From assembly GCF_003289645.1 (NCBI RefSeq), contig NZ_QLYX01000008.1:208147-272146 (forward strand): 64,000 bases of DNA. Reading direction: 5' to 3'. The position numbers and the translations under genes were made by a program. The DNA is from Actinomadura craniellae (lineage in GTDB: Bacteria; Actinomycetota; Actinomycetes; Streptosporangiales; Streptosporangiaceae). Positions 6,791 to 63,102 of the stretch are shown in pieces (the stretch's first letter is position 1; each line of letters begins with the position of its first letter). The notes under the pieces were generated by a model. It was given only the letters and a program-made list of their open reading frames with translations, was not told the DNA's origin and did not search any database.

Positions 6791-6892
6791 GTCCCTGCTC
6801 TGAAGGGGCTTCATGGCGGGCTCGACTGTTGACTAGAAAGAACGTTCTAGCGATACTCCGGTCAGGAGTTCGTCTGACGGTGGGAGCAGGGC

Positions 6893-7924
6893 ATGCGGCG
6901 GTTGATGCTGGACGGGCCGGGGGCCGTGCGGTGGGAGGAACATCCCGAGCCGGAGATCACCGGCCCGGGGCAGGCGGTCGTGCGGCCGGTGGCGGTGGCC
7001 ACCTGCGACATCGACCCGGCGGTGCTGACCGGGGTCTTCCCGCTGGCGGGGCCCTACCCCTTCGGGCACGAAGGGGTGGGCGAGGTGGTCTCCGTCGGTG
7101 CGGACGTGCGGAAGGTACGGCCCGGCGACCTGGTGGTGGTGCCGTTCCAGATCTCGTGCGGCGCGTGCGGGCCCTGTACCCGGGGGCGTACCGGGAACTG
7201 CGCGGCGCACCCGATGATGTCCACCTACGGCCTCGGCCCGATGGGCGGGCTCGGCTGGGGCGGGCTGCTGGCCGACCTGGCGCTGGTGCCGCACGCCGAC
7301 GCCATGCTGGTGCACGTCCCGCCGGGGGTGGCGGCTGAGACGGTGGCCAGCGCCAGCGACAACATCCCCGACGCCTACCGGGCCGTCGCCCCGCACCTGG
7401 CCGCCGAGCCCGGCGCGGAGGTCCTGGTGGTCGGCGGGAGCGGACCCTCGTCCATCGGCCTGTACGCCGCGGGCCTGGCGGTGGCGCTCGGCGCCGCCCG
7501 GGTGGTCTACCTCGACCACGACCCGGACCGGCTGGGCATCGCCGCGGCGCTGGGCGCCGACACCCGGGAAGGAGGCTACGAGGACAGGCTCGGCGCCTTC
7601 CCGATCACGGTGGACGCGAGCGGCGCCCACGAGGGGCTGCGCCGGGCCCTGCGGAGCACGGCCCCCGACGGGGTGTGCACCAGCGTCTCGGTCTACCTGA
7701 AGGACCCGCCGCTGCCGATGTTCCAGATGTACTCGCGGTGCTGCACGCTGCACACCGGCCGGGCGCACGTCCGCCCGGCGATCCCCCAGGTGCTGGACCT
7801 GGTGGCCCGCGGCCGGTTCGACCCAAGCCTGGTCACCACCACCCTGGTCGACTGGGAGGACGCCCCCGAGGCACTACCGGCCGCCCCGCTGAAACTGGTC
7901 GCCACCCGCACCGGGACGCCATGA
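6893..7924 (+). CDS. Zinc-dependent alcohol dehydrogenase (MDR) family
   Basis: Catalytic zinc site GHEGVGEV; structural zinc site CGACGPC; Rossmann motif VVGGSGPSSIG. Confidence 0.85.
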   Translation: MRRLMLDGPGAVRWEEHPEPEITGPGQAVVRPVAVATCDIDPAVLTGVFPLAGPYPFGHEGVGEVVSVGADVRKVRPGDLVVVPFQISCGACGPCTRGRTGNCAAHPMMSTYGLGPMGGLGWGGLLADLALVPHADAMLVHVPPGVAAETVASASDNIPDAYRAVAPHLAAEPGAEVLVVGGSGPSSIGLYAAGLAVALGAARVVYLDHDPDRLGIAAALGADTREGGYEDRLGAFPITVDASGAHEGLRRALRSTAPDGVCTSVSVYLKDPPLPMFQMYSRCCTLHTGRAHVRPAIPQVLDLVARGRFDPSLVTTTLVDWEDAPEALPAAPLKLVATRTGTP

Positions 7925-8342
7925 GCGGCCGGGACGCCACCACCGCCGGATCAGCGTAGATGAAGCAGCCCTGGTTCAACGTTTACCCAGGGTCGGCAAC
8001 TGAACATCGCTGCAGATACACGGTTTCCTCCCCGCCAGGGCCTGCCAGCAGGCGAAACCGTGCATATCCGCAATCTTTACGAGCAGAACGTTCCCAGGGG
8101 CAGGTCTTCCCACGCGAACAGCCTTGCTGGAGCGGGAGACCCGAGTTCTTCCGGACGAGAAGAACCACTCATCAAGAAGAACGTCGACAAACGTCAAGGG
8201 GCTGGTTCACTGGGCCCTGGCTGGGCCCTTTGGTGGGCCTCGAATGGTTCCAAATTGGGTCTCCAGGCCCTGTTCGGGAACTTCGATTAACATCATATTC
8301 ATCTTTGTCAAAGGAATTATGATGAACTGTGGCAGGTGATAG

Positions 8343-26136: not shown

Positions 26137-29100
26137 TCACGCGCGGTGGTCGGTGGGGCCCGACCGGTGCCGGCCGGCGGGGCTGAGGCCGGCGGCGGCG
26201 CGGTCGATGGCCTTCTCGACGGCGCCGACCCGGTCGGCGAGGAGGTCCACGGCGCCGACGGCGCGGCCCACCGGGTCGGCGGGGTCGCCGCCGAGTGCCC
26301 GGGCCCGCAGGTGGCCGGCCTTGACCTCGGCCCAGCGGCGGGCCTGGTCGGGGGTGAGCCGGTCGCGCAGCTCGGCCAGCTTGAGCAGGTTGGCCTCGGC
26401 CCCGGAGGCCAGCGCCTGCGCCTCGCCCCGGTAGTGGTCGTCGATCACCGCCGCCAGTTCGTCCGCGTCCATCACGGGGACGATCCGCTCCGCCAGCCGG
26501 TTCATGTTCCGGTAGGACCCCTGGAGCAGGAACGGCGGCTCGGTGCGGGACGCGTCCGGCTGCGCGGCCGAGGCGATGTAGGCCCGGTTGACCGCCAGCA
26601 CCACCTCGCGCGCCTCGACCAGCCGCCGCAGCACCGCCGTGATCTGCTCCAGCTCGACCGGGGAGTAGGGGTGCGCCAGCCGGTCGGGCCTGATCGGCTC
26701 GCCGTCCTGGACGGCGCCGACCAGCGCCCGCACGTCCTCGGGCGGGCGGGCCGACAGCGGGGCCAGTACCGGGTTGGCGGTGAGCGCGTTCTCCACGTAG
26801 CTCAGCGCGAACAGGTCGTCCCGGCCGGACAGCACGTCGCCGAGGTTCCACACGTCGGCCCGGTTGGCGAGCATGTCGGGCACCTGGAACGCGGTGCCCG
26901 ACTCGGTGTAGGGGTTGCCGGCCATGCACACCGCGAACCGTTTGCCGCGCAGGTCGTAGGTGTGCGCCTGGCCGTCCCGGACCCCCTCGATCCGGCGCTG
27001 GGCGTCGCACAGCGAGACGAACTTCTGCAGCAGCTCGGGCGAGGTGTGCTGGATGTCGTCGAGGTAGAGCAGCACGTTGTTGCCCATCTCCAGGGCGAAC
27101 GAGATCTTCTCCACCTCCCGGCGCGCGGCGGCGTCCGGCGCCCGGGCCGGGTCGAGGGAGGTGACCTCGTGGCCCAGCGCCGGGCCGTTCACCTTGACGA
27201 GCACCAGGCCGAGCCGCCCGGCCACGTACTCCAGCAGCGTGGTCTTGCCGTAGCCGGGCGGCGAGATCAGCAGCAGCAGCCCCATCCGGTCGGTCTGCCG
27301 GTCCTCGCCCGCCGCGCCGAGCTGCTTGGCCAGGTTGTCGCCGATCAGCGGCAGGTAGACCTCGTCCAGCAGCCGGTTGCGCACGAACCCGCCGAGCACC
27401 CCGGGCCGGTACTCGGCGATCCGCAGCCGCTCCCGCTCCCGCTCCACCAGCTCGGTGCGGCGCCGCCGGTACGCCCGGTACGCGGGGACGCGCTCGGTGC
27501 GGAACTCCCGGGTCCGCTCCAGCGTCTCGTCCAGCCGCAGCTCCAGCCGCCCGCCGCTGATCCGCGGGTGCGCGCCGAGCAGGCCCTCGACGGTGGCCGC
27601 CAGCGGGGCGGCGCAGTCGCGCCGGGGCAGTGCGGTGCCGCACAGCTCCAGCGCCACCGCCTCGGGCAGGTCGTCGGCCGGCGCGCCGGCCAGGTACCCG
27701 CCCAGCCACGCCTCGACGAGCTGCCGGCGGGAGTCCAGGTCGTCGCCCAGCGCGCGCAGGTCGCCCTGGTACTCCCGCAGCGCCTGCGGCCCCAGCGCCC
27801 GGTGGAAGCCGGCCAGCAGGGCCCGGGCCGCGGCGGAGGTGACGAACCCCGACCCGCCCGCCAGCTCCTCGAACAGGTACTCCCCGGCGAGCGGCGGGCC
27901 CCCCACGGCCGCGGCGAGCTCGGCGCGCAGCTCCTCGACCGCCGCGGCGGCGCCGAACCGGGCGCGGGCCCGGGCGAGCGAGGCGGCCCGCCGGGCCCAG
28001 GAGTCACGGGCGCGCTGGTCGGTGCCGTGCGCCCAGAAGAGCTGGGCGGCGGCCCGCGCGGCCGGCGGGTAACGCAGCAGGCCGGCCCCGCCGTACAGGC
28101 CGAGCAGGGCGTCCAGGATCAGGCTCGCGTCGTGGTCGTGGACGCCCTGCTCGTACCCCTCGTCGTACCGGTCGCGGGCCGCCGCCCGGACGGTGTCGAG
28201 CGTCGGCGCCGGGAGGGACGGCCCCTGTTCGTCCCTCCCGGCTTCGGCGAGGACCGCCGCCGCCAGGTGCTCGGACCGGTACACCCGCGGGGACTCCGAG
28301 ATCAGCGGCTGGTCCCAGAAGGGCCGCGTCCCCTCGAAGCCCGCGTCGCGCACCGGGGCCCGGTAGTCCGTCCCGGTGATCGCGAAGGTCATCCCGCCCG
28401 CGTGCGGGACGAGGGTGAGGTCGGTCGGCCGGGTGCTGACCGCGAACCGGTGCCGGCCCAGCCGGAGCGTGGCGCCGCCGTCCTCGACCAGGTCGGTGCG
28501 GTCGCGCAGCGCCCGCCCGGCCTCCTGCCGGGCGGCCTTGATCCGGCCGTCCAGCTCCCCGGCCCGCACGGGGTCGCCCAGCGCGCGCAACTCCTCGGCG
28601 ACCTCGCGCAGCTTCGCCACCATCGGGTCGGTGGCGAAGTAGGTGTTGACCTCGTCCGGTGAGCCCAGCCCGGCCAGCCGGCGGCGGACCCCGGCCAGGA
28701 TCCGCTCGGCCGAGCCGGCCAGCCGGTCGGCGCGGCGGGCCCGCTCGTCGAGCAGGGCCTGCCGGCGGGCGGAGAACGCCTCGTGGACGTCCTCGCGCCT
28801 GGCCGCCAGCTCGGCCAGGAAGTCGTCGAACTCGGCGAACCGCGACTCCAGGTCCTCCAGCCGGAGCATCAGCCGGCCGAGCCGCTCGTCGCACTGCTCG
28901 GGGGTGCCGGCCGCCGCCAGCGCGCCGGTGACCTCCTGGGCGAGCAGCGCGAACTCGGCGGCGAACCCGGCCCGGCCCTCGGCGTCCAGCAGCTCCCGGC
29001 GGCGGGCCGCCAGGACGGCGCGGGCCCGGTTGAGCTCGCCGGCGACCTCGCCGATCCGCTCCAGGATCCGGGTCCGGACGGTGGCGTCGCCGGTGTCGAG

Positions 29101-30999
29101 CGAGCCCGCCACCTCGGTGACCGTCTCCAGCCCGGCCGCCTGCTCGGCCAGCCGGTCGCCCAGCGGGGCGGCCTCGGCCACCGTGCCGATCGCCCCCGCC
29201 TCGCCGATCAGCCGGTCCAGCTCCTCGTGGTAGCCGGCGAAGGCGTCCGGCCCCTGGAGGAACGCGATCGCCCGCCGCCCGGCCCGGTCGAGCTCGGCGG
29301 CCAGCCGCCCGGCCTGCTCGTCGAGCCGGTCCAGGTCCATGTACCGCAGCTCGCGCAGCGTCTCCAGGTGCCCCTGCTCGCGGCGCAGCCCGGCCAGCCG
29401 GGTCACCCAGGCGTCGGCCGTCCCCGGCGCCTCGCCGCGGACCCGGCGGACCAGCGTGGTGATCTTCTCCGCGGCCTCGTCGAGCGCGGCGGCGGCCTCG
29501 GCGGTGAGCGCCTGGACGGTCTCGAACTCGTCCAGCACCCGCTCGGCGGTCGCCCTGACCTCGCCGAGCGGTCCGGCCAGGCCCTGCTCGCCGAGCCAGT
29601 GGTAGTGGTCGGACGCCCGCGCGCAGGCGGCGATCAGCCCCTCGAACACCCCCGTGGACGGGGCCGGTTCGGCCGCCGTCCGGGCCACCGCCAGGCAGTC
29701 GGAGATCCCGCGCACCAGGTCCGCGTTGCCGATCCGCTCCAGCGGCCCGGTGCCGGCGGGCCGGGCGGCGGCGTGCGTGTCGGAGACGTAGGGGGTCTGC
29801 CACACCTGCATCGGGTGCACCCGGGTGGGCTCGTCGGAATCGGCCCGGAAGACCACCATCGTGCCGTCGTCGAACAGCGAGTGGCCGTGGCAGGACATCG
29901 GGGCGCCGACCTGCTTGCGGATCACGTTGTAGGGCAGCAGCAGGGTCCGTCCCTCGGCCCGGGCGTGGAAGACGTAGAGCACGTCCTCCCCGTTGGGGGA
30001 GCGGATCGTCCGCTCGTACTCCAGGTCCGCCACGTCGGTGTCGAAGGTCCGGGCGCCGCCGCCGGCCAGGTAGTAGCCGCCGGGGAAGATGACGCCGTGG
30101 TCCTCCGGCAGCCGCCGGCAGGACTGCCCGATGCCGTCGAGCCGGGCGACGTCCCGGGTGCGGGTGTCGAACACCAGGTGCCGCCAGGCCGGCTCGTTGT
30201 AGGGGCGGATCCGCAGCAGGATCAGCGTGCCGACCCGCGCGTACCGGACGTCGGCGTCGCCCAGGCTCTGCAGCGGCTCGTTCACCGGCTCGCTGAAGAT
30301 CCCCGCACCGGTCTCGGTGTTGTCCTCCACCTTGACGGTGAGGGTGCCGCCCACGGTCTCGACGAACACCTCGCCGCCGATCGAGATGTGCGGGTGCCGG
30401 CCCGGGACGTGGTCGTCCCGGGTGGTCTCGGTCCACTCGAAGTCGTGCGGCGGCGGGAAGGCGTGCTCGCGCTCGCCCTTGTTGTCGAGGTACTCGACGT
30501 CCCCGTCGGGGCCGACCGCCCAGCGCAGCACCCGGATGTCTTCGATCCGGGGGCCAGTCCGGAAGACCGCCAGCAGTCGGCCCTCCAGCCGGCGCAGCTG
30601 CATCAGGCCGGCCTCCCGGTAGTACCGGTAGAGCTCCGCGAAGTCGCGTTCGAACCGCTCGCCGCCCAGCGGCCCGGTGGCGGGCAGCCGCTCGAAGACC
30701 GGCCCGTCGCCGGTCAGCGCGAACCGGTGCAGCGAGAACACGTCGTCGACGGCCGTCTCCGGCTTGAGCCCGATGAAGACGTTGTAGCCGAAGAGCATCA
30801 GCCCGCCGAGCGAGACGATGTCACGGGGAACGCAGTTGTGCTCGGTCCGGATCCGCTCGGTGCCGACGAGCCTGAGCTCGGTGCCGCCGAACACCTCCAG
30901 CCGCCGGTCGTTCAGCTCCCGGGCGCGCCGGGCGAGTTCCCCGGCGTGCCCGGCGAGCCGGTCCCGGAGCACCTCGTAGGTGCCCTGGTCGAGGGTCAT
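26137..30999 (-). CDS. Giant (1620 aa) flotillin-associated protein with a C-terminal MoxR-class AAA+ ATPase domain
   Basis: Walker A LLISPPGYGKTTL, Walker B VLLYLDDIQ, sensor-1 AGNPYTE, Arg-finger region LANRADVW. Long coiled-coil region in the middle. ATGA-coupled to the flotillin stop. Confidence 0.75.
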   Translation of the reverse strand: MTLDQGTYEVLRDRLAGHAGELARRARELNDRRLEVFGGTELRLVGTERIRTEHNCVPRDIVSLGGLMLFGYNVFIGLKPETAVDDVFSLHRFALTGDGPVFERLPATGPLGGERFERDFAELYRYYREAGLMQLRRLEGRLLAVFRTGPRIEDIRVLRWAVGPDGDVEYLDNKGEREHAFPPPHDFEWTETTRDDHVPGRHPHISIGGEVFVETVGGTLTVKVEDNTETGAGIFSEPVNEPLQSLGDADVRYARVGTLILLRIRPYNEPAWRHLVFDTRTRDVARLDGIGQSCRRLPEDHGVIFPGGYYLAGGGARTFDTDVADLEYERTIRSPNGEDVLYVFHARAEGRTLLLPYNVIRKQVGAPMSCHGHSLFDDGTMVVFRADSDEPTRVHPMQVWQTPYVSDTHAAARPAGTGPLERIGNADLVRGISDCLAVARTAAEPAPSTGVFEGLIAACARASDHYHWLGEQGLAGPLGEVRATAERVLDEFETVQALTAEAAAALDEAAEKITTLVRRVRGEAPGTADAWVTRLAGLRREQGHLETLRELRYMDLDRLDEQAGRLAAELDRAGRRAIAFLQGPDAFAGYHEELDRLIGEAGAIGTVAEAAPLGDRLAEQAAGLETVTEVAGSLDTGDATVRTRILERIGEVAGELNRARAVLAARRRELLDAEGRAGFAAEFALLAQEVTGALAAAGTPEQCDERLGRLMLRLEDLESRFAEFDDFLAELAARREDVHEAFSARRQALLDERARRADRLAGSAERILAGVRRRLAGLGSPDEVNTYFATDPMVAKLREVAEELRALGDPVRAGELDGRIKAARQEAGRALRDRTDLVEDGGATLRLGRHRFAVSTRPTDLTLVPHAGGMTFAITGTDYRAPVRDAGFEGTRPFWDQPLISESPRVYRSEHLAAAVLAEAGRDEQGPSLPAPTLDTVRAAARDRYDEGYEQGVHDHDASLILDALLGLYGGAGLLRYPPAARAAAQLFWAHGTDQRARDSWARRAASLARARARFGAAAAVEELRAELAAAVGGPPLAGEYLFEELAGGSGFVTSAAARALLAGFHRALGPQALREYQGDLRALGDDLDSRRQLVEAWLGGYLAGAPADDLPEAVALELCGTALPRRDCAAPLAATVEGLLGAHPRISGGRLELRLDETLERTREFRTERVPAYRAYRRRRTELVERERERLRIAEYRPGVLGGFVRNRLLDEVYLPLIGDNLAKQLGAAGEDRQTDRMGLLLLISPPGYGKTTLLEYVAGRLGLVLVKVNGPALGHEVTSLDPARAPDAAARREVEKISFALEMGNNVLLYLDDIQHTSPELLQKFVSLCDAQRRIEGVRDGQAHTYDLRGKRFAVCMAGNPYTESGTAFQVPDMLANRADVWNLGDVLSGRDDLFALSYVENALTANPVLAPLSARPPEDVRALVGAVQDGEPIRPDRLAHPYSPVELEQITAVLRRLVEAREVVLAVNRAYIASAAQPDASRTEPPFLLQGSYRNMNRLAERIVPVMDADELAAVIDDHYRGEAQALASGAEANLLKLAELRDRLTPDQARRWAEVKAGHLRARALGGDPADPVGRAVGAVDLLADRVGAVEKAIDRAAAGLSPAGRHRSGPTDHRA

Positions 31000-33005
31000 C
31001 GGGCCACCCGGTCGACCTCGGCGACGGGCATGCCGTCCACCCCGAGCCGGGTGGCCTCGGCCAGCAGGCCGCGCAGCCGGCCGAGGTCCGGGCCGCCCTG
31101 CCCGATCAGCTTGAGGAGCAGCGCCGACACCGTCAGGTTCTTCACGTCGCCGGTGTCCAGCGAGCGCACCAGCCGGGCCAGGTCGGTGTGGAAGCCGGAG
31201 TCGCCGTTCAGGTACGGCTCGACCACCGCCCGCGCGAGGTCGGAGTGCTCGACGAACCCGTCCACGGCCTTGCCCAGGGAGATCGCGCCGACCAGCCGGT
31301 CGAAGAACATGCTCTCGCCGCCGACGATGTTGATGTTGGCCTGCTCCAGCCCGGTGGCGAGCACCGTGGCCTGCGCCTCGGCGATCTGCCGCTGGGCGTC
31401 GAGACCGGCCAGCCGGATGTCCTTCTCGGTCTCCAGCCGCAGCCGGTACTCCTCGTGCCGGCGGCTGACGTCGTCCAGCGCGGCCATCGCCGCGGCCTTC
31501 TCCGACAGCCCCTCGGCCTCGGCCTTGAGCTTCTCGCGGGTCGCCTCGGCGGTGACCAGGGCCTGCTCCCGGGCCACGATCGCCTCGGCCCGGCCGACCT
31601 TCTCCACGGCCTCGGCGCCGCGCTCGCGCACCTGCACTTCGGCCAGCCCGGCGGCGGCCTCCTCCGCCTGGACGCCCTCGGCGAGGCGGATCTTGGCCTG
31701 GGCGTCCAGTTCCGCGGCCTGCCGGCGGGCGTCGGCCAGCGTCAGCTCCCGCCGCGCCTGGTGCACGGCGGCCTGCTCGGCGGCCTCGGCCGCCTTGATG
31801 TCCTTGACCAGGTTCTCCTGGGCCTCGGCCTCGGCGTGGATCACCAGCGCCTGGCGGGCGCGCTCGGCCTCCTCGACGGCGCGCAGCCGCTTGATGTGCT
31901 CCTCCTGCTCGGCGACCGTCCGCTCCACCGCGATCCGCTCCCGGATCACGTCGGCGATCTCCCGCCGCTCCACCTCGACCTCCTTGTTCGCGGAGATGCG
32001 CGACAGCTCGGTCTCCCGCTCGCGGGCGATGACCTCCAGCAGCCGGTCCTTCTCGATCCGCTCGCTCTCGATGGCGATGACGCGCTCGCGGTTCTTCTCG
32101 GCGACGGCGATCTCGCGGTTGCGGTTCTCCTGCTGGACGCCGAGCTGCTCGTCGGTGCGGATGTGCGCGGACTGGGCCCGCAGCCGCTCCTCGGCCATCA
32201 CCCGCTCGGTCTCGGCCTCCTCGCGGGCGCGCATTGTGGCGATCTCGCGCTGCTGCTTGAGTTCGGCGTCGGCCTTGCGGCGCTCCAGTTCCAGGATGGC
32301 CTCCCGGGCGTCCACGTCCTGGCGGGTGATCTCCTTCTCCTCGGTGCGCTTGAACTCGTTGGTCCGGACGTGCTCGATCGCGGTCAGCTCGGTGATCTTC
32401 CGGATGCCCTGGGCGTCGAGGATGTTGGACCGGTCGAGCGACATCAGCGACGTCTGCTCCAGGTAGTCGATGGCGGCGTCTTCGAGGCTGTAGCCGTTCA
32501 GGTCGGTGCCGATCACCTGGATGATCCGGTCGCGGAAGGTGTCGCGCTGGGTGTAGAGGTCGACGAAGTCGAGTTGCTTGCCGACGGTCTTCAGCGCCTC
32601 GGAGAACTTGGCGTTGAACAGCTCCTGCAGGGTGGCCCGGTCGCTGGCCCGGCCGGTGCCGATCGCCTGCGCCACCTTGATCACGTCCTCGGCGGTCTTG
32701 TTGACCCGGACGAAGAACGTGATGCGGATGTCGGCCCGGATGTTGTCGCGGCAGATCAGGCCCTCGCGGCCGGTCCGCTCGATGTCGATGGTCTTGACCG
32801 AGATGTCCATCTGCTCGGCCCGGTGCAGCACGGGGAGGACGATCGCCCCGGTGAAGGTGACGTCCACCTTCTTGACCTTGGAGATGATCAGTGCCTTGCC
32901 CTGCTCCACCTTGCGGAACAGCCGGGTGACGACGAACGCCAGCCCGAGGACGACGAGCAGGACGAGGGCGATCAGGATGCCGATGCCCGCGGTGATGGTT
33001 TCCAT
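30996..33005 (-). CDS. Flotillin-like SPFH/Band-7 protein (FloT/YqiK type)
   Basis: N-terminal TM segment, SPFH domain, long Glu/Arg/Ala-rich coiled coil, conserved C-terminal flotillin domain. Confidence 0.9.
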   Translation of the reverse strand: METITAGIGILIALVLLVVLGLAFVVTRLFRKVEQGKALIISKVKKVDVTFTGAIVLPVLHRAEQMDISVKTIDIERTGREGLICRDNIRADIRITFFVRVNKTAEDVIKVAQAIGTGRASDRATLQELFNAKFSEALKTVGKQLDFVDLYTQRDTFRDRIIQVIGTDLNGYSLEDAAIDYLEQTSLMSLDRSNILDAQGIRKITELTAIEHVRTNEFKRTEEKEITRQDVDAREAILELERRKADAELKQQREIATMRAREEAETERVMAEERLRAQSAHIRTDEQLGVQQENRNREIAVAEKNRERVIAIESERIEKDRLLEVIARERETELSRISANKEVEVERREIADVIRERIAVERTVAEQEEHIKRLRAVEEAERARQALVIHAEAEAQENLVKDIKAAEAAEQAAVHQARRELTLADARRQAAELDAQAKIRLAEGVQAEEAAAGLAEVQVRERGAEAVEKVGRAEAIVAREQALVTAEATREKLKAEAEGLSEKAAAMAALDDVSRRHEEYRLRLETEKDIRLAGLDAQRQIAEAQATVLATGLEQANINIVGGESMFFDRLVGAISLGKAVDGFVEHSDLARAVVEPYLNGDSGFHTDLARLVRSLDTGDVKNLTVSALLLKLIGQGGPDLGRLRGLLAEATRLGVDGMPVAEVDRVAR

Positions 33006-33015
33006 GGGGGCTCCT

Positions 33016-33606
33016 TCAGAGTTCGGGGGTACGACGGTCCGGGTCGAGCGCGGCGTCGTACGGCATGACGAGGTAGACCTCGCCCGCCGGGTCGTAGTCG
33101 AAGATCAGTGCGGTGTCGCCGGCGGCGAGCGCGTCCGTCCCGGCCCGGCGGACCTGGACGACGGCGGTGGACCCGTCCGGCGCGGTCGCCTCGGCCTGGC
33201 CGAAGGTCCCGGTGACGGTGCCGGTGCGGATGACGCAGGTGCGGCCCACGAAGTCGTGGCGGGACGGCGCCGGGCGCTCCTCGAACAGCCGCCGCAGCGG
33301 CGCGACGAGCAGGCGGGTGCCGCCCCAGGCGACGGCCAGGGCCGCCGGCAGCACCGCCACCCGGACCGGGGCGGGCGGCCCGGCGGCGGTCGCCGCCAGG
33401 CTGACGAACCAGGCCTGGGCGATCAGCAGGGAGAGGGCGACGGTGACCGGGATCCCGCCGAGGCCGAGCACACCGGCGAGGCCGTCGTCCTCGCCGAGCT
33501 CGGCACCGCCCAGCGTGACGAGGATCCAGTACCCCGCCACCACGACGAGGGAGTAGCTGAAAATTGCGGTGGGAAAACCGAGCGCGGCAGTTATGAAGGC
33601 ACCCAT
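33016..33606 (-). CDS. NfeD-like/YqiJ-like membrane protein
   Basis: Three N-terminal TM helices plus C-terminal OB-fold-like domain (GRTCVIRTGTVTG...VVQVRRAG). Positioned upstream of flotillin as in yqiJ-yqiK / yuaF-floT. Confidence 0.75.
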   Translation of the reverse strand: MGAFITAALGFPTAIFSYSLVVVAGYWILVTLGGAELGEDDGLAGVLGLGGIPVTVALSLLIAQAWFVSLAATAAGPPAPVRVAVLPAALAVAWGGTRLLVAPLRRLFEERPAPSRHDFVGRTCVIRTGTVTGTFGQAEATAPDGSTAVVQVRRAGTDALAAGDTALIFDYDPAGEVYLVMPYDAALDPDRRTPEL

Positions 33607-34064
33607 GATTCCCTTCTTCGGGCAGGGTTGATTGCACGCGAAACAATGGCGTGAAAGGTTCACCGAATGGTGTGGATCAGGGGTGAACGGAGCCGGCCGA
33701 AGCGGCGGCCGGCGATGCGACGGCCCTGGTCGGGCCTGGATGCCCGACCGGGCTCAGCGAGGTTCAGGGGGTGTGGTGACGAAACTCGACCACAAGTGCT
33801 CGCGGCTCGCCCTCGGGCGCAGCCGGTTCGATGCGAACATCGGGAGCCTTCCGGTCGGGGACACGACGGTCAATCGCCGACCAGGCTTCCCGGCACACCA
33901 AGGGTGACTATAGCGCATTCCATGACTACCCGGAAGAACGCGATATGTCAGAGATGGTGTTTGTAGTGCCCTGAATTACTCCATTCCTGTGTTTTCCGCA
34001 GGTCCGGAGCCCGCCCGGATCTGGTTCCGGCCGGATCCGGCCGTTCGGGCTAGGCTCGGTTGTC

Positions 34065-35003: not shown

Positions 35004-35128
35004 TCCTTCAGCTTTCGGTGCGTCATAACGCCTCGGATGCTGAAGGATCACCAGGTCAGGGCGATTCTCCGGTGATCCTTCGGCTTTCGAGGCGCCCTCG
35101 CGCCTCGAAAGCTGAAGGATCAGCCGGG
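35001..35128. repeat. Two REP/MITE-like inverted-repeat units of the GATCCTTCAGC family
   Basis: CTGATCCTTCAGC...GCTGAAGGATCAC and GGTGATCCTTCGGC...GCTGAAGGATCAGCC with a nested palindrome CTTTCGAGGCGC/GCGCCTCGAAAG. Confidence 0.75.
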
Positions 35129-36583
35129 GTAGGTCCACGGGCGGCCGGTGCCCTGATACTCCGCCACGGCGATGGGGTGGACGCCGGGGCGCATCCGGTC
35201 GGTGTAGAGGCGGCCGTGCAGGTGGTCGACCTCGTGCGCGACCAGGCGGGCGAGGGCGTCGGTGAAGACGGTGATGACCTGCCGTCCGTCCGGGGTGGTG
35301 TGCTCGACCTCCAGCCGCAGCGGCCGGGGGACGAGCCCGCGCACGTCGAAGAACGACAGGCAGCCCTCGTACCGCTCGTCCTCCTCGTCGGACTGCTCGA
35401 TGATCCGGGGGTTGAGCAGCACCAGCGGCTCGGCGTCGTCGCCGGGGGGCAGGACGACGGCGACCGCCCGGTCCACCCCGATCTGCGGGGCGGCGAGCCC
35501 CATTCCCTTGCCGAAGACGTGGTGCTCGCGCACGCGCTGCACCGCGGCCAGTAGTTCGTCGACCAGTTCGCGCACCTCGCCGGGCCGGGCGGGCAGGTCG
35601 ATCCGGCGGGCCGCCCGGCCGAGCCGGGGGTCGTCGCGCTGCACGATCCCGGCCGCCCGCATCCGGTCGCCGGCCGTCCTGAGCTCCGGTGGCGCGGTGT
35701 TCCCCGGCCCGGCGTGCTCGCGCAGCCGCCATTCCAGCCGGTACCGGCTGTTGAGCGGCGGGTCCTCGGTGGACCAGTCGAACACGTCGGTGTCGCCGTC
35801 CCGGCGCCGGGTGACGGGGGTGGGCAGTGGGGCGGCCTCGGCGGTGGCCGAGGTGTGCGTGCCCCACACCGCCGGCACCATGTCCGCGGGGAACACCAGG
35901 CGCACCGACAGCCGCAGGGTGTGCAGCCGGACGGCCCGCTGGAACCAGGGCCCCCACTTGTCCTCGCCCACCGTGTAGGCGTACTCCAGGGTGGCGCGCT
36001 CGCCGGGGTAGAGGGGGAACCGGCCGCGGTCGTTCTCGAAGCGCAGCCACACCTCCTTGAACGAGTCGCGGTCGAGCTTGACCTGCCAGTCCATCTCCTC
36101 GCCGTCGCAGCGGGCGGACAGCGCGAGCTCGTCGAAGGTCAGCGGGTGCCGCCGGTAGAGCCGGTTGGCGGCCTGCGGGTCGCCGGGGTGCCGGTCCACC
36201 GAGATGCGCATCAGGTACCGGGTGACCGGGTCGGGCCCGGTGTTGCGGATGGCGCGCCGCATGACGGCGGTGAAGGCGCCGGCCCGGTAGCGCAGCTCGG
36301 CGTGGTCGTGCTCCACCACCAGCCCGCCCGAGCCGCGCGGGGCGGGCGGCGCCGGCTGCTCGGTGCCCCCGGCGGACTGCCAGGCCCGCCAGATCTCGCC
36401 GCCCGCGCTCAGCGCGGCCTCGGCCCGCCGGGCGAAGTCGGCCGAGGCGGGGTGCCGGCCGTGCTCGACGTGCGAGATGTAGGACCGGTCGAATCCCATG
36501 GCGTCGGCCAGCGCCCGCCCGGTCATCCGCCGGCGCTTGCGCCACCGGGTGAGCACGCCCCCGAACGTCTCGACGTCGTCCAT
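35120..36583 (-). CDS. Fusion protein: Scr1-like XRE-HTH + DUF5753-like domain + complete peptide deformylase domain
   Basis: N-terminal Cro/C1 HTH (LTRWRKRRRMTGRALADAMGFDRSYISHVEHGR). C-terminal PDF motifs GMGLAAPQIG, EGCLS, HEVDHLHG. An internal Met at 35662 looks like a stand-alone PDF N-terminus, but no stop separates the parts. Confidence 0.7.
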   Translation of the reverse strand: MDDVETFGGVLTRWRKRRRMTGRALADAMGFDRSYISHVEHGRHPASADFARRAEAALSAGGEIWRAWQSAGGTEQPAPPAPRGSGGLVVEHDHAELRYRAGAFTAVMRRAIRNTGPDPVTRYLMRISVDRHPGDPQAANRLYRRHPLTFDELALSARCDGEEMDWQVKLDRDSFKEVWLRFENDRGRFPLYPGERATLEYAYTVGEDKWGPWFQRAVRLHTLRLSVRLVFPADMVPAVWGTHTSATAEAAPLPTPVTRRRDGDTDVFDWSTEDPPLNSRYRLEWRLREHAGPGNTAPPELRTAGDRMRAAGIVQRDDPRLGRAARRIDLPARPGEVRELVDELLAAVQRVREHHVFGKGMGLAAPQIGVDRAVAVVLPPGDDAEPLVLLNPRIIEQSDEEDERYEGCLSFFDVRGLVPRPLRLEVEHTTPDGRQVITVFTDALARLVAHEVDHLHGRLYTDRMRPGVHPIAVAEYQGTGRPWTYPG

Positions 36584-53641: not shown

Positions 53642-54199
53642 ATGGATCGGGGAGAGGCTTCGGTCTTCCATTTCGTCGCCGGTGCCGGCTGCGTCTTCGT
53701 GCTCGCGCTCGCCTTCAAGGGCGTGGCCGTGTCCACCGCTTCGGCGTTCCTGGCCGGCACGGTCGCGCTGTGGTCGCTGCACACGCGGATCGCCACCGGC
53801 ATGGCGCTCGGCCTGGTCGCGTGGCTGCTGTGCACCGGGTTCGTCGTCAACGGGTCCGGTGAGCTGGCGGTCACCGGCGTGGCCGACGGTGGCCGGCTGG
53901 GGTTGTTCGTCGCCGCCGGCCTGGCCGGGGCGCTCGCCGGCAGGCTGCTGACCGGGAACGCACCGGACGACGCCCCGCCGCCCCGCCAGGCCACGGGGGC
54001 GACCGTCGTCCCTCTGCCGCGGGCCGAGCCCGAAGGCGGGCTCCTCCCGCCGTGCCGGCATCGCGCGGGGGACTGCCGGTACGGCGCGTACTCGGGCGGC
54101 CGGACGCTCAGCGTGGTCCGGGCGCCGGCCGGGGACGAACGGTCGGACGGCCCGGAACCATCAGACGACTGGGCCGGACGTCATTTGAAGAGGTCCTGA
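53642..54199 (+). CDS. Integral membrane protein (4 TM) with Pro/Asp-rich C-terminal tail
   Basis: ATG 53642 with GAGGAGG RBS. Confidence 0.55.
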   Translation: MDRGEASVFHFVAGAGCVFVLALAFKGVAVSTASAFLAGTVALWSLHTRIATGMALGLVAWLLCTGFVVNGSGELAVTGVADGGRLGLFVAAGLAGALAGRLLTGNAPDDAPPPRQATGATVVPLPRAEPEGGLLPPCRHRAGDCRYGAYSGGRTLSVVRAPAGDERSDGPEPSDDWAGRHLKRS

Positions 54200-54690
54200 C
54201 CGTCGCGCCCCGAGGGGTCCATTGTCAGGATGTCTTCGTACAGGCCCCGGACCGGCCGGCCGGTGAGATCGCCCCGCGGCGTGGTCTCCATCAGTACCCA
54301 GCCCGGGGTGTCCTCGGATGCCTCGTGGTCGCGCCCCTCGCCCGTCAGCCGGTAGAGCATCGCGAACACCGCCTCGTAGGCCGTGCACCGCGCGAGCCGG
54401 ATGACGTCGTCGCGATCGGCCCCCGCGGCCAGCAGCCGGGCGGCCGCCGGAAGGGACTCCAGCGCGCCGGGAGCGGCCCAGCCGTCGATCATCTCCGGCC
54501 AGATGCGCCGCAACGCCAGGAACCCGGCCAGCTGGGGGATGCTCTCGGAGATCTCGGAGAGGGCCCGGCTCTCGGGCTCGTCGGCGCCCAGTTCGGCGAA
54601 ACGATCCCGAAGGGCGATCGCCGCGGCGCGCTCCTGCTCGTCCATGGCAGTCAGCGCGCGGTCCCATCCGGACTCGGAAGACATCGACAT
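54181..54690 (-). CDS. Hypothetical acidic protein
   Basis: High GC3; no recognised domain. Confidence 0.4.
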   Translation of the reverse strand: MSMSSESGWDRALTAMDEQERAAAIALRDRFAELGADEPESRALSEISESIPQLAGFLALRRIWPEMIDGWAAPGALESLPAAARLLAAGADRDDVIRLARCTAYEAVFAMLYRLTGEGRDHEASEDTPGWVLMETTPRGDLTGRPVRGLYEDILTMDPSGRDGQDLFK

Positions 54691-54973
54691 CCCAGCACAA
54701 TGCCACGTCTGCGGCCTGGCTTGCTCGGCTCCAAACCACTGCCAACTTCCGCCGCGCCAGGGTCTCCCCAATGAGAGAGACCTAACCCGCCCCGCCTTCG
54801 GCTGACCATATGCGGGCGATATGGGGTGTTTGTGTCATGTCCGGAGGGCTTCAAGCGAGATGCTGCGTGCCCTGCTCTGTGGCCGTATCAAGCGGGTTCG
54901 CCGTTCTCCTGACATGACATCGCTGAGTCACTACGATCCCGACGATCTGTATTGGGTCTTGTAAGGGGGATCG

Positions 54974-55912
54974 GTGCTTCCGCACCAGAGGCAGTACGCG
55001 CAGGGGATGTTCCGCGCGCTCGTGGACGAGAGCAGCGGTAACGAGTTCGAGAAGCTGGTGCACCGACTGATGGAGCTGTGCCACCCCGGATACGTGCCGA
55101 TACGCACTCATGGTGATATCGGTGACCTTGGCGGGGATGGGCTCTGCACCTGCCACGGACATCTCTATGCCTGCTATGCACCAGAGACGTTCCAAGTCTC
55201 GAAGGTTCGGGACAAGTTCTTTGGCGATTTAGAGAGCGCCCTGATACAGCGCCCTGAGCAGTTCGATGCCTTCGTGTTCGTGCACAACGACCAGCGAGGT
55301 ATCCACCCGGTGGTCGCAGGGTTGATCTCTGAGGCTCAGCGGAGGCTGCCGAAGACCCAGCTGCGGCAGATGGGGCCACGCAAGCTCTGGAACGAAGCGT
55401 TGATCCTGGACCTACCGAGGATGGAGCAACTCCTCGGCCAGCCGATTCCGGTGAGCGAAGTCCGTTACGCCGTGGGTATGGCGGACATCGAACCACTGCT
55501 GAAACACCTGGCCGACAACCGTCCACGGCATGTACGACCCGCGGATATCCCATTGCCGAGCACCATGAAAGCGGACTACAACCGGCTCAGTCCTCGCTCC
55601 CAACAGGTGTTCAGAGAGGCTCGCCCCTACGTCTACCAAGTGGAGGAGTACTACCGTGGGTTGATCAACCATACTGAGCAGGACGAGGTGGCGGCCGGGT
55701 TCACGGCGTACTACTGCCAGATGCGGGAGGAGTACGGCGACCAGCCAGATGAGATCCTCTGGCAGTTGGAAGGGTACGTCTTGGGTCAGGCGCATGCCCG
55801 CTGGGAACGGGCCGACGCGGCCAGGGTCGTGGTCACGTTCTTCTTCGATCAATGCGACATCTTCGAGGTTCCGCCACCCGGGTGGCGCCGACCGCAGTCG
55901 GGAACATCATGA
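54974..55912 (+). CDS. Predicted effector component of an ABC-3C-like three-gene system (fold unassigned)
   Basis: GTG start with AAGGGGGA RBS; the stop overlaps the next start (ATGA). Lower GC than the flanks. Cys/His cluster CTCHGH and Asp-rich segment GDIGDLGGDG. Confidence 0.6.
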   Translation: MLPHQRQYAQGMFRALVDESSGNEFEKLVHRLMELCHPGYVPIRTHGDIGDLGGDGLCTCHGHLYACYAPETFQVSKVRDKFFGDLESALIQRPEQFDAFVFVHNDQRGIHPVVAGLISEAQRRLPKTQLRQMGPRKLWNEALILDLPRMEQLLGQPIPVSEVRYAVGMADIEPLLKHLADNRPRHVRPADIPLPSTMKADYNRLSPRSQQVFREARPYVYQVEEYYRGLINHTEQDEVAAGFTAYYCQMREEYGDQPDEILWQLEGYVLGQAHARWERADAARVVVTFFFDQCDIFEVPPPGWRRPQSGTS

Positions 55913-56178
55913 TCACACCGACGAAGGGAATTACTCCGGATCGTGCGCTTCTAGCCGTTGGCGCCCAGATCATCCTTCAGCTCGATCGGCCGCTGACAGT
56001 CAGCCAAACTTGGGCTCGTCTGCGCACCTGGCGGCAGGTGAACGGGCACCCGGCACCGTTATCCTTTGGCTGGTTCGTGCTCGCGCTCGATGTGCTCTAC
56101 GCACTCGGGGCCCTGGAGTTGAACGACGATCTGCTGACGGTGGTGAGGACGGGCCATGCTGCGTCGGCTCTCGGCTGA
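55909..56178 (+). CDS. Small (89 aa) alpha-helical middle component (MC-like) of the ABC-3C-like system
   Basis: Translationally coupled on both sides: ATGA with the effector, and a 23-nt overlap with the ATPase. Confidence 0.55.
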   Translation: MITPTKGITPDRALLAVGAQIILQLDRPLTVSQTWARLRTWRQVNGHPAPLSFGWFVLALDVLYALGALELNDDLLTVVRTGHAASALG

Positions 56179-57901
56179 CGACCAACGCTTCAAAACGGTC
56201 GAATTCCGCGAGGGGCTCAACCTTCTGGTTGCGCGAAGTACCGCAGAGTCATCCTCGACCGACAGTCGTAATGGTTCCGGCAAATCGAGTCTTGTTGAGC
56301 TCCTGCACTTCTTGCTCGGGGCGCGAGGCAGCCGCAATCACCTCGCCAGCCGGCCGAGCCTTCGGGACATCACGTTCACGCTGCGCCTCGATTGGCCGGG
56401 ACAGGCGAGAGCCATGGAAGTGAGCCGGAGCGGGAAAACAGCCGCGAACGTCCTGTTAGATCCCTGTCCCACATCCCTTGCAGGGCTTCTCCCGGAAGGC
56501 CGGTGCGCGGTCCCGGTCGGGGATTGGCAGGCGCTTACCGAGTCTGCGCTGTTCGGCCTGTCCGGTGAGCATCCGGGAGTCAGCGGGCGGGCGCTGCTGT
56601 CCTTCCTGATGCGCAAGGTCGGAGACCATGGATTCAACGAGGCCATCCGGAGTTTCGCGCGGCAGCCGGAGGCGCAGGCCACTCCGAACCTTGCTTACCT
56701 GCTGGGATTGGACTCCGATCTGGCGGCGCGATACCAGGATCTCGCGGCGCGCAAGGCCACCCGCGACCAGCTGAAGAAGGCGATCGACGATCCGGTATGG
56801 GGTCAGGTCGTCGGTAAGAGCGCGGACCTCCGCGGCCAGATAGCGATTGTCGAATCGAGAATCACCGCGTTGAACCGGCAGATCGCCGAGTTCCGGGTGG
56901 TGCCCCAGTACGAGGAGCTCAAATCTCGGGCCGATGAGCTGACGCGGCGGATCCAGGAGCTCAGCGCCGAGGACATCATCGATCGGCGGAACCTCGATCA
57001 CCTGGAGAAGGCGGTGGCCGAAGCCATCGACCCGGAAGTCCACTACCTCCAAGACGTCTACGAAGGACTCGGCATTTCGATCCCCGATCGAACGCTCCGC
57101 AGGTTCGAGGATGTACGCGAATTCCATGCCGCCGTGGTCGCCAACCGCCGTACTTACCTTGAGCAAGAGATCCGAGATACCCGAACGCGGCTGGAGAACC
57201 GTAAGGCCGAGCGGGCTCTCCTCGGGGAGGAGCAGAGCCGCATCCTCAAGCAACTTGGTGCAGGTGGTGCGCTCGCCGCTCTGACGACTCTGCAGAAGGC
57301 GCTGGGCCAGGAGGAGGCCGCGCGGGGCGCGTTGCAACACCGCTTGGAGGCGGCTCAGGCTGTTGAGGCGGGCAAGCGGGAGATCGCGAGCGAGCGTCTC
57401 AGATTGAACCAGGCCATCGAGACCGATCTGCAGGAGCGTCGCCTCCAGACCGACGAGGCCCAGGTTCTGTTCAATGACTTCGCTCAGCGTCTCTACGGTA
57501 CGACCAGGCCGTCCTATCTCAAGATCGAGCCAGGACCGAGCAGCCTGAGGATCACCCCGAAGATCGATAGTGATGTCAGCCAGGGCATCAACCGAATGGC
57601 GATCTTCTGCTTCGACCTGACCATCGCCGTCATAGCCCGCCGCGCGAACCGGGGTCCGGACTTCCTGGTCCATGACAGCCATCTCTTCGACGGTGTCGAT
57701 GATCGTCAGTTGACCCGGGCTCTGGAGATCGCTGTTGAGACCATGGCAGCCGAGAACATGCAGTACATCGTCACGATCAACGAGGATGATCTCGCCAAGG
57801 CCCGGGCCCTGGGCTTTGGCGCCGACCCCTACATCATCGAGCCTCGACTGACAGATGCCTACGCTGAAGGAGGCCTCTTCGGTTTCCGCTTCGACAGGTA
57901 A
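56156..57901 (+). CDS. ABC/SMC-like ATPase with coiled-coil insert (DUF2326/ABC-3C-type)
   Basis: N-terminal FKTVEFREGLNLLV...NGSGKSSLVEL (Walker A), about 230-aa coiled coil, C-terminal SQGINRMAIFCF (signature-like) and FLVHDSHLFDGVDD (Walker B/D-loop). Confidence 0.75.
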   Translation: MLRRLSADDQRFKTVEFREGLNLLVARSTAESSSTDSRNGSGKSSLVELLHFLLGARGSRNHLASRPSLRDITFTLRLDWPGQARAMEVSRSGKTAANVLLDPCPTSLAGLLPEGRCAVPVGDWQALTESALFGLSGEHPGVSGRALLSFLMRKVGDHGFNEAIRSFARQPEAQATPNLAYLLGLDSDLAARYQDLAARKATRDQLKKAIDDPVWGQVVGKSADLRGQIAIVESRITALNRQIAEFRVVPQYEELKSRADELTRRIQELSAEDIIDRRNLDHLEKAVAEAIDPEVHYLQDVYEGLGISIPDRTLRRFEDVREFHAAVVANRRTYLEQEIRDTRTRLENRKAERALLGEEQSRILKQLGAGGALAALTTLQKALGQEEAARGALQHRLEAAQAVEAGKREIASERLRLNQAIETDLQERRLQTDEAQVLFNDFAQRLYGTTRPSYLKIEPGPSSLRITPKIDSDVSQGINRMAIFCFDLTIAVIARRANRGPDFLVHDSHLFDGVDDRQLTRALEIAVETMAAENMQYIVTINEDDLAKARALGFGADPYIIEPRLTDAYAEGGLFGFRFDR

Positions 57902-57935
57902 TCGGCACGTCCGAGTCGCGGGAAGAGGAGGGTGC

Positions 57936-58469
57936 ATGAGCACGTACTGGTTCGAGCTCGTGGTCGGTCCGGTGGGCGACCTGGAGGAGGTCGCCGAGCG
58001 GCTGTACGCGATCTGCGGTGACGGCCAGCCGTCCGGCGATGGGCGGGGTGGCGCCGTCCTGTTCTCCCGGGAGTCGCGCAACGCCGTCGAGGCGATCCTG
58101 TCGGCGATCGACGACAGCGAGCGCGCGGGCCTCACGGTGACGGGCGTGGCCGAGGACCTGGTCACGGTCGATGACATCGCCGAGAAGACCGGTCGGTCAG
58201 GTCAGGCGGTCGGGCACTGGATCACCGGCGAGCGCGGCCCCGGCGGCTTCCCTGCACCGGTGATCCACCGCAGCAGCCGGATCAGGTTGTACTCCTGGGC
58301 CCAGGTCTCGCGCTGGCTGGCCGGCGCCGGGCTCGGCCGCGTCGACCAGGTCGCCGCCGAGGCCGCCACCGCCGCCGCCGAGGTGGACGTCCTGCTGCGC
58401 GCCCGCCAAGTCCTGCGCAACGCGCCCTCGGCCCGCCGCACCGCCCTGGCCAGACTGATCGACGCCTGA
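57936..58469 (+). CDS. HTH domain protein (possible regulator or accessory protein of the adjacent system)
   Basis: ATG 57936 with GGAAGAGGAGG RBS; HTH-like segment VDDIAEKTGRSGQAVGHWI. Confidence 0.5.
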   Translation: MSTYWFELVVGPVGDLEEVAERLYAICGDGQPSGDGRGGAVLFSRESRNAVEAILSAIDDSERAGLTVTGVAEDLVTVDDIAEKTGRSGQAVGHWITGERGPGGFPAPVIHRSSRIRLYSWAQVSRWLAGAGLGRVDQVAAEAATAAAEVDVLLRARQVLRNAPSARRTALARLIDA

Positions 58470-62924: not shown

Positions 62925-63102
62925 CGCCGGCCCCTTCCCCGATGTGCCGTCCCTCCGGGATACCGCATCGGGCCGGGGCCCCGCCCGGTTTCCTCACGAT
63001 GAGTCAGAGGATTGTCACCTTGCGGTGCGGGTGCCGGGCTGCAGTGAACCGATGTGCGCGGGTCGTGAATAGTGGGGGAAGCACGCGCCTTCGGGAGGAA
63101 TC

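Follow-up and report, generated by a model that had tools for sequence, protein, structure and literature searches.

A conserved flotillin operon with a giant DUF3686 ATPase in Actinomadura craniellae, and a candidate leader element shared with cation-transporter genes

What does a soluble ATPase of 1620 residues do behind a flotillin gene? The question is raised by a 64,000-nucleotide stretch of the Actinomadura craniellae genome (contig NZ_QLYX01000008.1, positions 208,147 to 272,146; hereafter the window), in which three minus-strand genes encode, in order, a small YqiJ/YuaF-like membrane protein, a flotillin and a giant AAA+ ATPase. An earlier reading of the letters alone (the original prediction) had described the three genes as chained and had suggested an energy-dependent remodelling or defence machine assembled on flotillin microdomains. 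Here we report that the ATPase accompanies its flotillin across the loci compared, and that in some actinomycetes the operon follows a short leader element found also ahead of cation-transporter genes.

The chaining of the three genes by overlap or a 10-bp gap was borne out in A. craniellae by an open reading frame (ORF) scan, the translations and the junction sequences. Between the yqiJ-like gene and the flotillin gene lies a 10-nt gap, AGGAGCCCCC, which contains a Shine-Dalgarno sequence, and the flotillin TGA and the ATPase ATG overlap as ATGA at 30996-30999. GAAGGG precedes the ATG of the first gene, at 33606; the mechanical ORF reaches further, to a GTG at 33663. GC content at third codon positions is 0.90-0.99 in each of the three ORFs, which matches the expectation for real genes in a genome of 73% GC. 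The 1620-aa protein is 100% identical to an NCBI entry from A. craniellae.

Gene neighbourhoods were compared in loci from a genome scan, run with one genome per species, that returned at least 599 carriers. The scan keeps the best 80 hits, nearly all of them from Actinomycetota; the count was made on the 80 fetched loci that have at least 2.8 kb of upstream sequence, and wider diversity was drawn from a profile search and a plasmid collection. The neighbourhoods are those of orthologues, and a lookup of the exact window protein gave no record. A flotillin homologue lies directly upstream of the ATPase, on the same strand, in all 80 loci, an adjacency far beyond chance, and a YqiJ-like gene is recognisable in 69 of them. 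The start-stop overlap is not conserved, with estimated gaps running from -4 to a few hundred bases. The original prediction had called the ATPase a non-standard partner for a flotillin and had proposed a comparison across Actinobacteria. That comparison shows the opposite, since the ATPase stands beside this flotillin subfamily throughout and the pairing is already described (PMC11237479). Nor is the large protein a well-characterised enzyme with a chance flotillin neighbour in one genome; it is common yet uncharacterised, and its link to flotillin is systematic.

The module is kept together across at least seven bacterial phyla. We found the trio in Bacterioplanes (Gammaproteobacteria), a Myxococcales genome, Myxococcus, a Deltaproteobacteria metagenome-assembled genome (MAG) and a Clostridia MAG, as well as in Deinococcus, Hymenobacter (Bacteroidota) and the Pseudomonas fluorescens megaplasmid pQBR103. 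A flotillin-ATPase pair is also visible on an Acidobacteriota contig, the end of which cuts the flotillin gene. Clustered at 90%, the ATPase family counts more than 5,600 members; at 50%, 766 representatives remain. Its full-length members are nearly all 1,550-2,040 residues long with DUF3686 at the N terminus. Across phyla the family is 43-57% identical. Flotillin identity to the window protein is 50-60% where measured, including 50-54% for the flotillins of the Bacterioplanes and Myxococcales operons. What flanks the trio varies even within Actinomadura.

The ATPase has no hydrophobic segment by hydropathy analysis, and both of its operon partners are membrane proteins. Its N-terminal two thirds had been described as lacking a recognised domain, which is wrong: Pfam places DUF3686 at residues 21-467 (E=1e-211) and DUF7902 at residues 585-669, both of them domains of unknown function, and adds weak matches to AAA_5, AAA and AAA_22 at residues 1239-1365. 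Two AlphaFold models made from 37 diverse sequences span the whole protein with predicted local distance difference test (pLDDT) scores of 86.6 and 84.6. In the N-terminal part, for which a structure search had been suggested at the outset, the models show a divergent beta-propeller, preceded by a helix at residues 7-37, and then spectrin-like helical repeats, with long helices over residues 419-839. The following region, residues ~841-1199, has no Pfam or PDB sequence match, and its invariant residues include G848, F852, G952, H954 and D957.

The final third carries the complete AAA+ module that had been predicted, with the GYGKTT, LYLDD, AGNP and NRAD motifs all present. Walker A is GPPGYGKTT (K1252; residues 1248-1253 are encoded at 27241-27258, minus strand), Walker B is LYLDD (D1314/D1315; residues 1311-1315 at 27055-27069, minus strand), sensor 1 is N1362 and the arginine finger is R1380. 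These residues, together with R1497 of a GSYR motif, are invariant in 25 relatives that are 29-62% identical, and sensor 2 probably lies in QGSYRNM (R1497). Throughout the DUF3686 family Walker B takes the form hhhhDD (LYLDDIQH), in which an invariant Asp replaces the catalytic Glu of most AAA+ proteins.

The module had also been labelled MoxR-class, and this part of the original prediction is not established. Conserved Walker A and B motifs, sensor 1 and arginine finger are common to all active AAA+ proteins and do not discriminate MoxR. The MoxR model AAA_3 matched none of 25 members; Pfam AAA, AAA_5 and AAA_22 each matched all 25, about equally and weakly. A Foldseek search with the second model returned RuvB (2e-5), CbbQ (3e-5), NorQ, MCM, ClpA/B and Skd3 at ~15% identity, as well as FtsH entry 2ce7, and the E-values for RuvB, CbbQ, NorQ, MCM and Clp fall within one order of magnitude. 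PDB sequence searches with the ATPase gave only P-loop similarity to Rix7, NVL and RuvB. As read by DSSP, the predicted model places a beta-hairpin, which would be the pre-sensor-1 hairpin, at model residues 516-529, after Walker B and before sensor 1; at the helix-2 position it has just a 14-residue loop and no clear beta-hairpin. No VWA-domain gene was found in the operon, its flanks or the related loci with Pfam tables.

CbbQ and NorQ, which are MoxR-type proteins of the AAA_5 kind, share with the window ATPase the P-loop AAA+ core, including a sensor 1 of the form NP..E.G followed by P...L.NR, with Foldseek target TM-scores of 0.47-0.56. Unlike them, the window ATPase is five to six times larger, carries an N-terminal propeller and helical arm, has no VWA partner, no AAA_3 match and no clear helix-2 hairpin in the model, and fits RuvB equally well. 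MoxR-class membership is a possibility and not a result, and neither sequence nor fold comparison resolves the AAA+ clade.

We accept the 669-aa product of the middle gene as a YqiK/FloT-type flotillin because of its BLASTP match to E. coli YqiK (28% identity over 454 aa, E=6e-33), which upholds its initial naming as an SPFH/flotillin protein; NCBI also names it a flotillin family protein. Pfam Band_7 matches 9 of 18 close orthologues (75-78% identical; best 1.5e-10), and the window flotillin itself has no Pfam match even at E=10. Scans of the window copies of the flotillin and the small protein against Pfam, NCBIfam and PADLOC gave nothing, and a profile of close flotillin orthologues found no chain among PDB sequences, the alignment being too shallow. 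By hydropathy analysis the protein has a single hydrophobic segment, residues 1-33, which serves as membrane anchor at the N terminus. Behind it come the SPFH domain, a long coiled coil rich in Glu and Ala, and a C-terminal domain that is conserved. About 300 residues rich in Glu, Ala and Arg can be aligned with the coiled coil of YqiK.

The small protein has hydrophobic stretches at about residues 4-38, 42-75 and 83-101 and a soluble beta-rich C-terminal domain, and it occupies the yqiJ position in the operon. Orthologues in the same operon position were found in Gammaproteobacteria (28%, E=4e-19) and Myxococcota (35%, E=2e-22). Its family profile matches a Hymenobacter protein named DUF1449 by NCBI with a probability of 99.6%, and the two are clearly one family. 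The match of the same profile to E. coli YqiJ is colinear but weak (E=5e-4, probability 31%). BLASTP against YqiJ found nothing, the window protein has no Pfam match, YqiJ_N is matched by 1 of 14 relatives (5.5e-5) and the Deinococcus orthologue falls short of the cut-off for NfeD (0.0078). The YqiJ/NfeD-like label given to the first gene is therefore carried by topology and operon position, while the link in sequence is weak. In three Streptomyces loci (L041 7171-7719, L048 7119-7709, L059 7096-7755) the yqiJ-like ORF retains the membrane part at its N terminus but not the conserved soluble domain at its C terminus. There, and in the 11 of 80 loci without a detected yqiJ-like gene, the small partner may be degenerating or not needed.

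The gene pair recalls E. coli yqiJ-yqiK and B. subtilis yuaF-floT (NfeD2-SPFH2; Hinderhofer et al. 2009, PMC2636767), in which a small multi-transmembrane protein with a soluble C terminus is likewise encoded directly upstream of a flotillin with an N-terminal anchor, SPFH domain and coiled coil. The window flotillin differs from YqiK in being ~115 residues longer, and pairwise comparison finds no similarity between the small protein and YqiJ. Behind yqiK, E. coli K-12 has the Sib/Ibs loci and no further gene on that strand.

In three loci outside Actinomycetota the trio is joined to PspA and CesT/Tir-like genes. The gene order in Bacterioplanes is DUF2170 (YjfI, CesT/Tir-like), PspA, trio, rhomboid protease; in Hymenobacter it is Tir chaperone, PspA, trio; and in pQBR103 it is YjfI, PspA, rhomboid protease, YjfK/L/M-like genes, a glutathionylspermidine synthase-like gene and trio. 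The pQBR103 locus (L089 1-13184) has on the same strand as the module a yjf-operon-like run that includes DUF2491, DUF350 and DUF1190, and its cluster thus unites both PspA operon classes of Ravi et al. The rhomboid protease genes lie at 13361-13933 of the Bacterioplanes locus (L005), where the start overlaps the ATPase stop, and at 1421-1975 of L089. On a Hymenobacter plasmid a LexA-family gene (HTH and S24 peptidase; L090 2577-3362) stands divergently upstream of the CesT-PspA-YqiJ-flotillin-ATPase operon, and a divergent cHTH+protease gene is listed for the Dokdonia context in Table S3 of Ravi et al. (PMC11237479). Such a gene may be a self-cleaving stress regulator of the module in Bacteroidota. 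Directly upstream of the trio in Actinomadura sp. DC4 (L001 4581-7255) are EACC1-domain and caspase (Peptidase_C14)-WD40 genes that resemble a conflict system and are absent from the window.

Ravi, Anantharaman, Aravind, Gennaro et al. (mSystems 2024, PMC11237479; preprint 2020) have described the same arrangement, including a three-transmembrane protein prototyped by YqiJ/YuaF, within a CesT/Tir-PspA operon. Operons cut down to the final three genes are, by their account, the more widespread form and may use PspA encoded elsewhere, and they infer for the system a chaperone-like or ATP-dependent role in membrane dynamics. The flotillin-ATPase association is therefore not new as a prediction, having been placed among membrane-stress systems in 2020 and 2024. 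The three core genes of that operon have the order and architectures seen in the window, and the ATPase feature they describe, an N-terminal beta-propeller with a coiled-coil/helical region, is present in the window protein. Their Dokdonia example (Table S3) has the gene order of Hymenobacter, Bacterioplanes and pQBR103, the ATPases of which are DUF3686 relatives of the window protein. Genes for CesT/Tir and PspA, present in the full operon, are absent from the 64 kb of the window, and by gene content and domain make-up we identify the A. craniellae operon as the "abbreviated" form of this conserved three-gene membrane module. PMC11237479 gives no ATPase structure, motif analysis or experiment, nor a leader element shared with cation-transporter genes. 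We found no paper that mentions DUF3686 or PF12458.

Comparison of upstream regions revealed such an element, 25 nt long and conserved, at the predicted transcript start of the A. craniellae operon. Its consensus is GGTG(T/C)GCCGGGAAG(C/T)CTGGTCGGC(G/A), with the stretch GCCGGGAAGCCUGGUC. A TAnnnT box recurs at the distance of the probable -10 hexamer in a profile of 139 anchored instances, and beyond the 25 nt and this box nothing is conserved across them. A sigma-70 consensus scan found no full promoter, and we infer the start site at 33899; promoter, terminator and Rfam scans of the region were all negative. With 0-1 mismatch, the element stands ahead of the orthologous operon in Actinomadura sp. 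DC4, A. litoris, A. latina, two Actinoallomurus and one Nocardia, and precedes all 11 NhaA-type or CPA1-type antiporter genes in the fetched Streptomyces loci. At least 120 metagenome contigs carry the exact element core, mostly ahead of cation-transporter genes. Among these listed contigs the first downstream gene is NhaA in 26 and CPA1/Na_H_Exchanger in 13, others being DUF2254, Na/Ca exchangers, an ABC ATPase, CBS proteins, a CitMHS/ArsB/NhaB-like permease and a long NfeD1b; the flotillin operon is in none of them. We suggest, cautiously, that in some actinomycetes, that of the window included, the flotillin operon belongs to one regulatory group with cation/proton transporters. The shared leader element makes salt, lithium or alkaline stress the condition to look at.

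As RNA the element can form a hairpin, GCCGGG-AAG-YCUGGU (in the window GCCGGG-AAG-CCUGGU), the sole variable position of which pairs G-C or G-U; its near-invariance precludes a covariation test. We lean towards action as RNA rather than as a DNA operator because of the fixed orientation and the position at +1. Three instances compared with Rfam 15 matched no family at E<=10, and the nhaA-I, nhaA-II (Li+) and DUF1646 (Na+) riboswitches were each considered and rejected on that comparison; the Li+ riboswitch paper does not mention Actinobacteria. No paper containing the element sequence was found. It may be a new cis-regulatory element for cation homeostasis in Actinomycetota, and is offered here as a candidate.

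The predicted 5' region of the transcript (33899-33597, 303 nt with the first 10 coding bases included) folds with z=-2.98 versus shuffles, and its 293-nt leader (33899-33607) holds a possible upstream ORF. At the same place in two other Actinomadura loci are ORFs of 38 codons (L018 ~6822-6938, L031 ~6862-6978), both of which start with MTPR and end with AFPDS, and to which the 28-codon ORF of the window is not clearly homologous. In these three Actinomadura genomes a Shine-Dalgarno-like sequence with an ORF of 28-38 codons thus lies between the element and the yqiJ-like gene. An NhaA-type gene runs off the end of the window (63094-64000, plus strand; 42% identity to Streptomyces NhaA, E=2e-51), and the sequence upstream of it bears merely a partial likeness to the element (GGTGCCGGG...). 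Coordinates of the operon and its leader are collected in the table.

Table. Features of the flotillin operon, its ATPase and its leader (window positions unless a locus is named)
Feature	Position	Strand	Basis or remark
Probable -10 hexamer TATAGT	33907..33912	-	7 nt upstream of leader element
Conserved 25-nt leader element GGTGTGCCGGGAAGCCTGGTCGGCG	33875..33899	-	Predicted transcript start; comparison of upstream regions
Possible 28-codon upstream ORF MFASNRLRPRASREHLWSSFVTTPPEPR	33754..33840	-	GGAAGG ahead
YqiJ/YuaF-like gene (short NfeD type), 196 aa	33016..33606	-	196 codons; ATG 33606, stop 33016-33018
YqiK/FloT-type flotillin gene (SPFH2), 669 aa	30996..33005	-	ATG at 33005
AAA+ ATPase gene, 1620 aa	26137..30999	-	
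DUF3686, divergent beta-propeller in model, ATPase residues 21-467	29599..30939	-	~27 strands in residues 43-401
Long helical spectrin-repeat-like region including DUF7902, residues ~470-840	28480..29592	-	
Small beta domain, helical middle domain and long helix into motor, residues ~841-1199	27403..28479	-	pLDDT 84.6
AAA+ motor, lid and C-terminal helices, residues ~1200-1620	26140..27402	-	Invariant columns in 25-37 diverse relatives
Element GGTGYGCCGGGAAGYCTGGTCGGCR in other loci	L001 7332-7356, L015 7201-7225, L018 6765-6789, L031 6801-6825, L032 7198-7222, L063 7353-7377		
Element ahead of antiporter genes	L034, L040, L044, L048, L055, L064, L073, L074, L087		

We propose a dedicated AAA+ machine at the flotillin scaffold. 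Several observations lead to it: synteny is strict, the partners are membrane proteins, the ATPase is soluble and has a recognition-type propeller with a long arm, its catalytic site is intact, and the module is joined repeatedly to PspA/CesT operons. Together the flotillin and its YqiJ/NfeD-like partner would form a large scaffold at the membrane, on the cytoplasmic side, and the third gene would supply a soluble machine devoted to it. Reaching and recognising the flotillin assembly, or PspA polymers in operons that include PspA, would be the task of the N-terminal beta-propeller and the long helical arm; the C-terminal ring would use ATP to assemble, disassemble or reshape these assemblies during envelope or ionic stress, in a role that would parallel that of Vps4 on ESCRT-III. 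It is our favoured reading, and one we consider somewhat probable, that the ATPase remodels the flotillin scaffold itself, and PspA assemblies where present, under such stress; the protein-protein contact, the substrate, the direction of remodelling and the inducing signal are what we infer in it. Of the machine first suggested, the remodelling half is plausible, and the defence half is unsupported, PADLOC having given P-loop noise alone.

Vps4/ESCRT-III and FtsH/HflK/C offer functional analogies, as each sets an AAA+ ring on or inside a polymeric membrane scaffold. The window ATPase has no sequence relationship to Vps4 or FtsH beyond the AAA+ fold, and lacks the MIT domain, protease domain and membrane anchor. 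The parallel to ESCRT-III and SPFH systems is that PspA and flotillin scaffold genes share an operon with the ATPase in several phyla. According to a 2025 review (PMC7619361), the ESCRT-III-like systems of bacteria appear to lack a Vps4-like ATPase. One could go further and see in the DUF3686 ATPase the missing energy source of flotillin/PspA scaffolds, a counterpart of Vps4, that in part of Actinomycetota is co-induced with Na+/H+ antiporters by an undescribed 25-nt 5'-terminal element reporting cation or alkaline stress; in this full form the idea is speculative, and we regard it as doubtful.

Several points weigh against the remodelling proposal and its extension to ionic stress. The leader element precedes the operon in only 7 of the 80 actinomycete loci, so that the link to cation stress may be lineage-specific. 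Walker B carries Asp-Asp and not the usual Asp-Glu, so catalytic competence is assumed. A tblastn search of the 64-kb window with Bacterioplanes PspA and DUF2170 found no PspA or CesT gene. (One weak PspA hit, at 10538-10696, was rejected, as its sequence looks like an HxlR-type regulator.) No experimental study of any family member was found in the searched literature.

Other explanations have to be set beside it. Instead of remodelling the scaffold, the ATPase might extract or unfold damaged or misassembled client membrane proteins in the flotillin/YqiJ-like compartment and possibly hand them to a protease, as the HflK/C-FtsH and QmcA-YbbJ cages are established precedents (PMC13086221) and the Foldseek matches include the unfoldases ClpA/ClpB and Skd3 as well as an FtsH entry (2ce7). 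The rhomboid protease in the Bacterioplanes and pQBR103 clusters, with its start overlapping the ATPase stop in the former, would suit such a hand-over. This link, however, is found in 2 of ~90 loci only, the ATPase has no protease domain, and the window operon has no protease gene, its neighbours being a lipase/alpha-beta hydrolase and a solute-binding protein; we judge client extraction, the main alternative, unlikely though not implausible. An anti-phage or conflict system, in which the ATPase would sense infection through its propeller and set off membrane disruption by way of the flotillin, could account for the presence of the module on megaplasmids (pQBR103 and plasmids of Deinococcus, Hymenobacter and Streptomyces), for flanks that differ among genomes of one genus and for the EACC1 and caspase-WD40 pair that adjoins it in Actinomadura sp. 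DC4. Yet the plasmid records are for the most part either very large replicons that are non-mobilisable or chromosomes entered as plasmids, and a uniform cassette with 60-72% protein identity across many actinomycete genera is better suited to housekeeping or stress than to a defence gene in rapid evolution. In other genomes the operon is joined by PspA, CesT and polyamine genes and not by nucleases or toxins, and PADLOC-DB 2.0 models gave only 30-residue P-loop matches (E 0.009-0.018). A defence role thus seems to us quite improbable.

The name "DNA repair ATPase" derives from the Pfam description of DUF3686 and is repeated as the PGAP product name. Taken at its word, the large protein would repair DNA and its adjacency to flotillin would carry no functional meaning. 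RuvB does head the Foldseek matches for the AAA+ module (E=2e-5), RuvB_N is weakly matched in 20 of 25 members, and in Hymenobacter a LexA-family gene lies divergently upstream of the operon. The RuvB likeness is nevertheless limited to the AAA+ core, at ~15% identity, and CbbQ and NorQ equal it. No nuclease, helicase or DNA-binding domain occurs in 25 diverse members, membrane-protein partners are present in every locus and no supporting paper was found, all of which leaves DNA repair the least credible of the readings.

The genes around the operon have no relation to the three-gene module. A lipase/alpha-beta hydrolase gene (25114-26019, minus strand) lies downstream, with genes for a solute-binding protein and for a SARP/NB-ARC/TPR regulator, and upstream are a divergent NAD-dependent epimerase and an HTH-peptide deformylase fusion. 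The latter, of 487 aa (35120-36583, minus strand), is unusual in joining an N-terminal HTH_31/XRE DNA-binding domain to a C-terminal peptide deformylase (E=7e-34). GC content dips to 0.63-0.66 at 54001-58000, 8001-10000 and 14001-16000 against a background of 0.70-0.79, and these stretches may be acquired segments.

Bacterial flotillins and the ESCRT-III-like PspA/Vipp1 proteins form large membrane assemblies, and a soluble AAA+ machine that always stands beside one flotillin subfamily, and often beside PspA, is an obvious candidate for the driver of their scaffold dynamics. The product name "DNA repair ATPase" is misleading and probably hides the family from those who work on membranes. The module occurs in hundreds of species, among them tractable Streptomyces, P. 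fluorescens pQBR103 and Proteus mirabilis.

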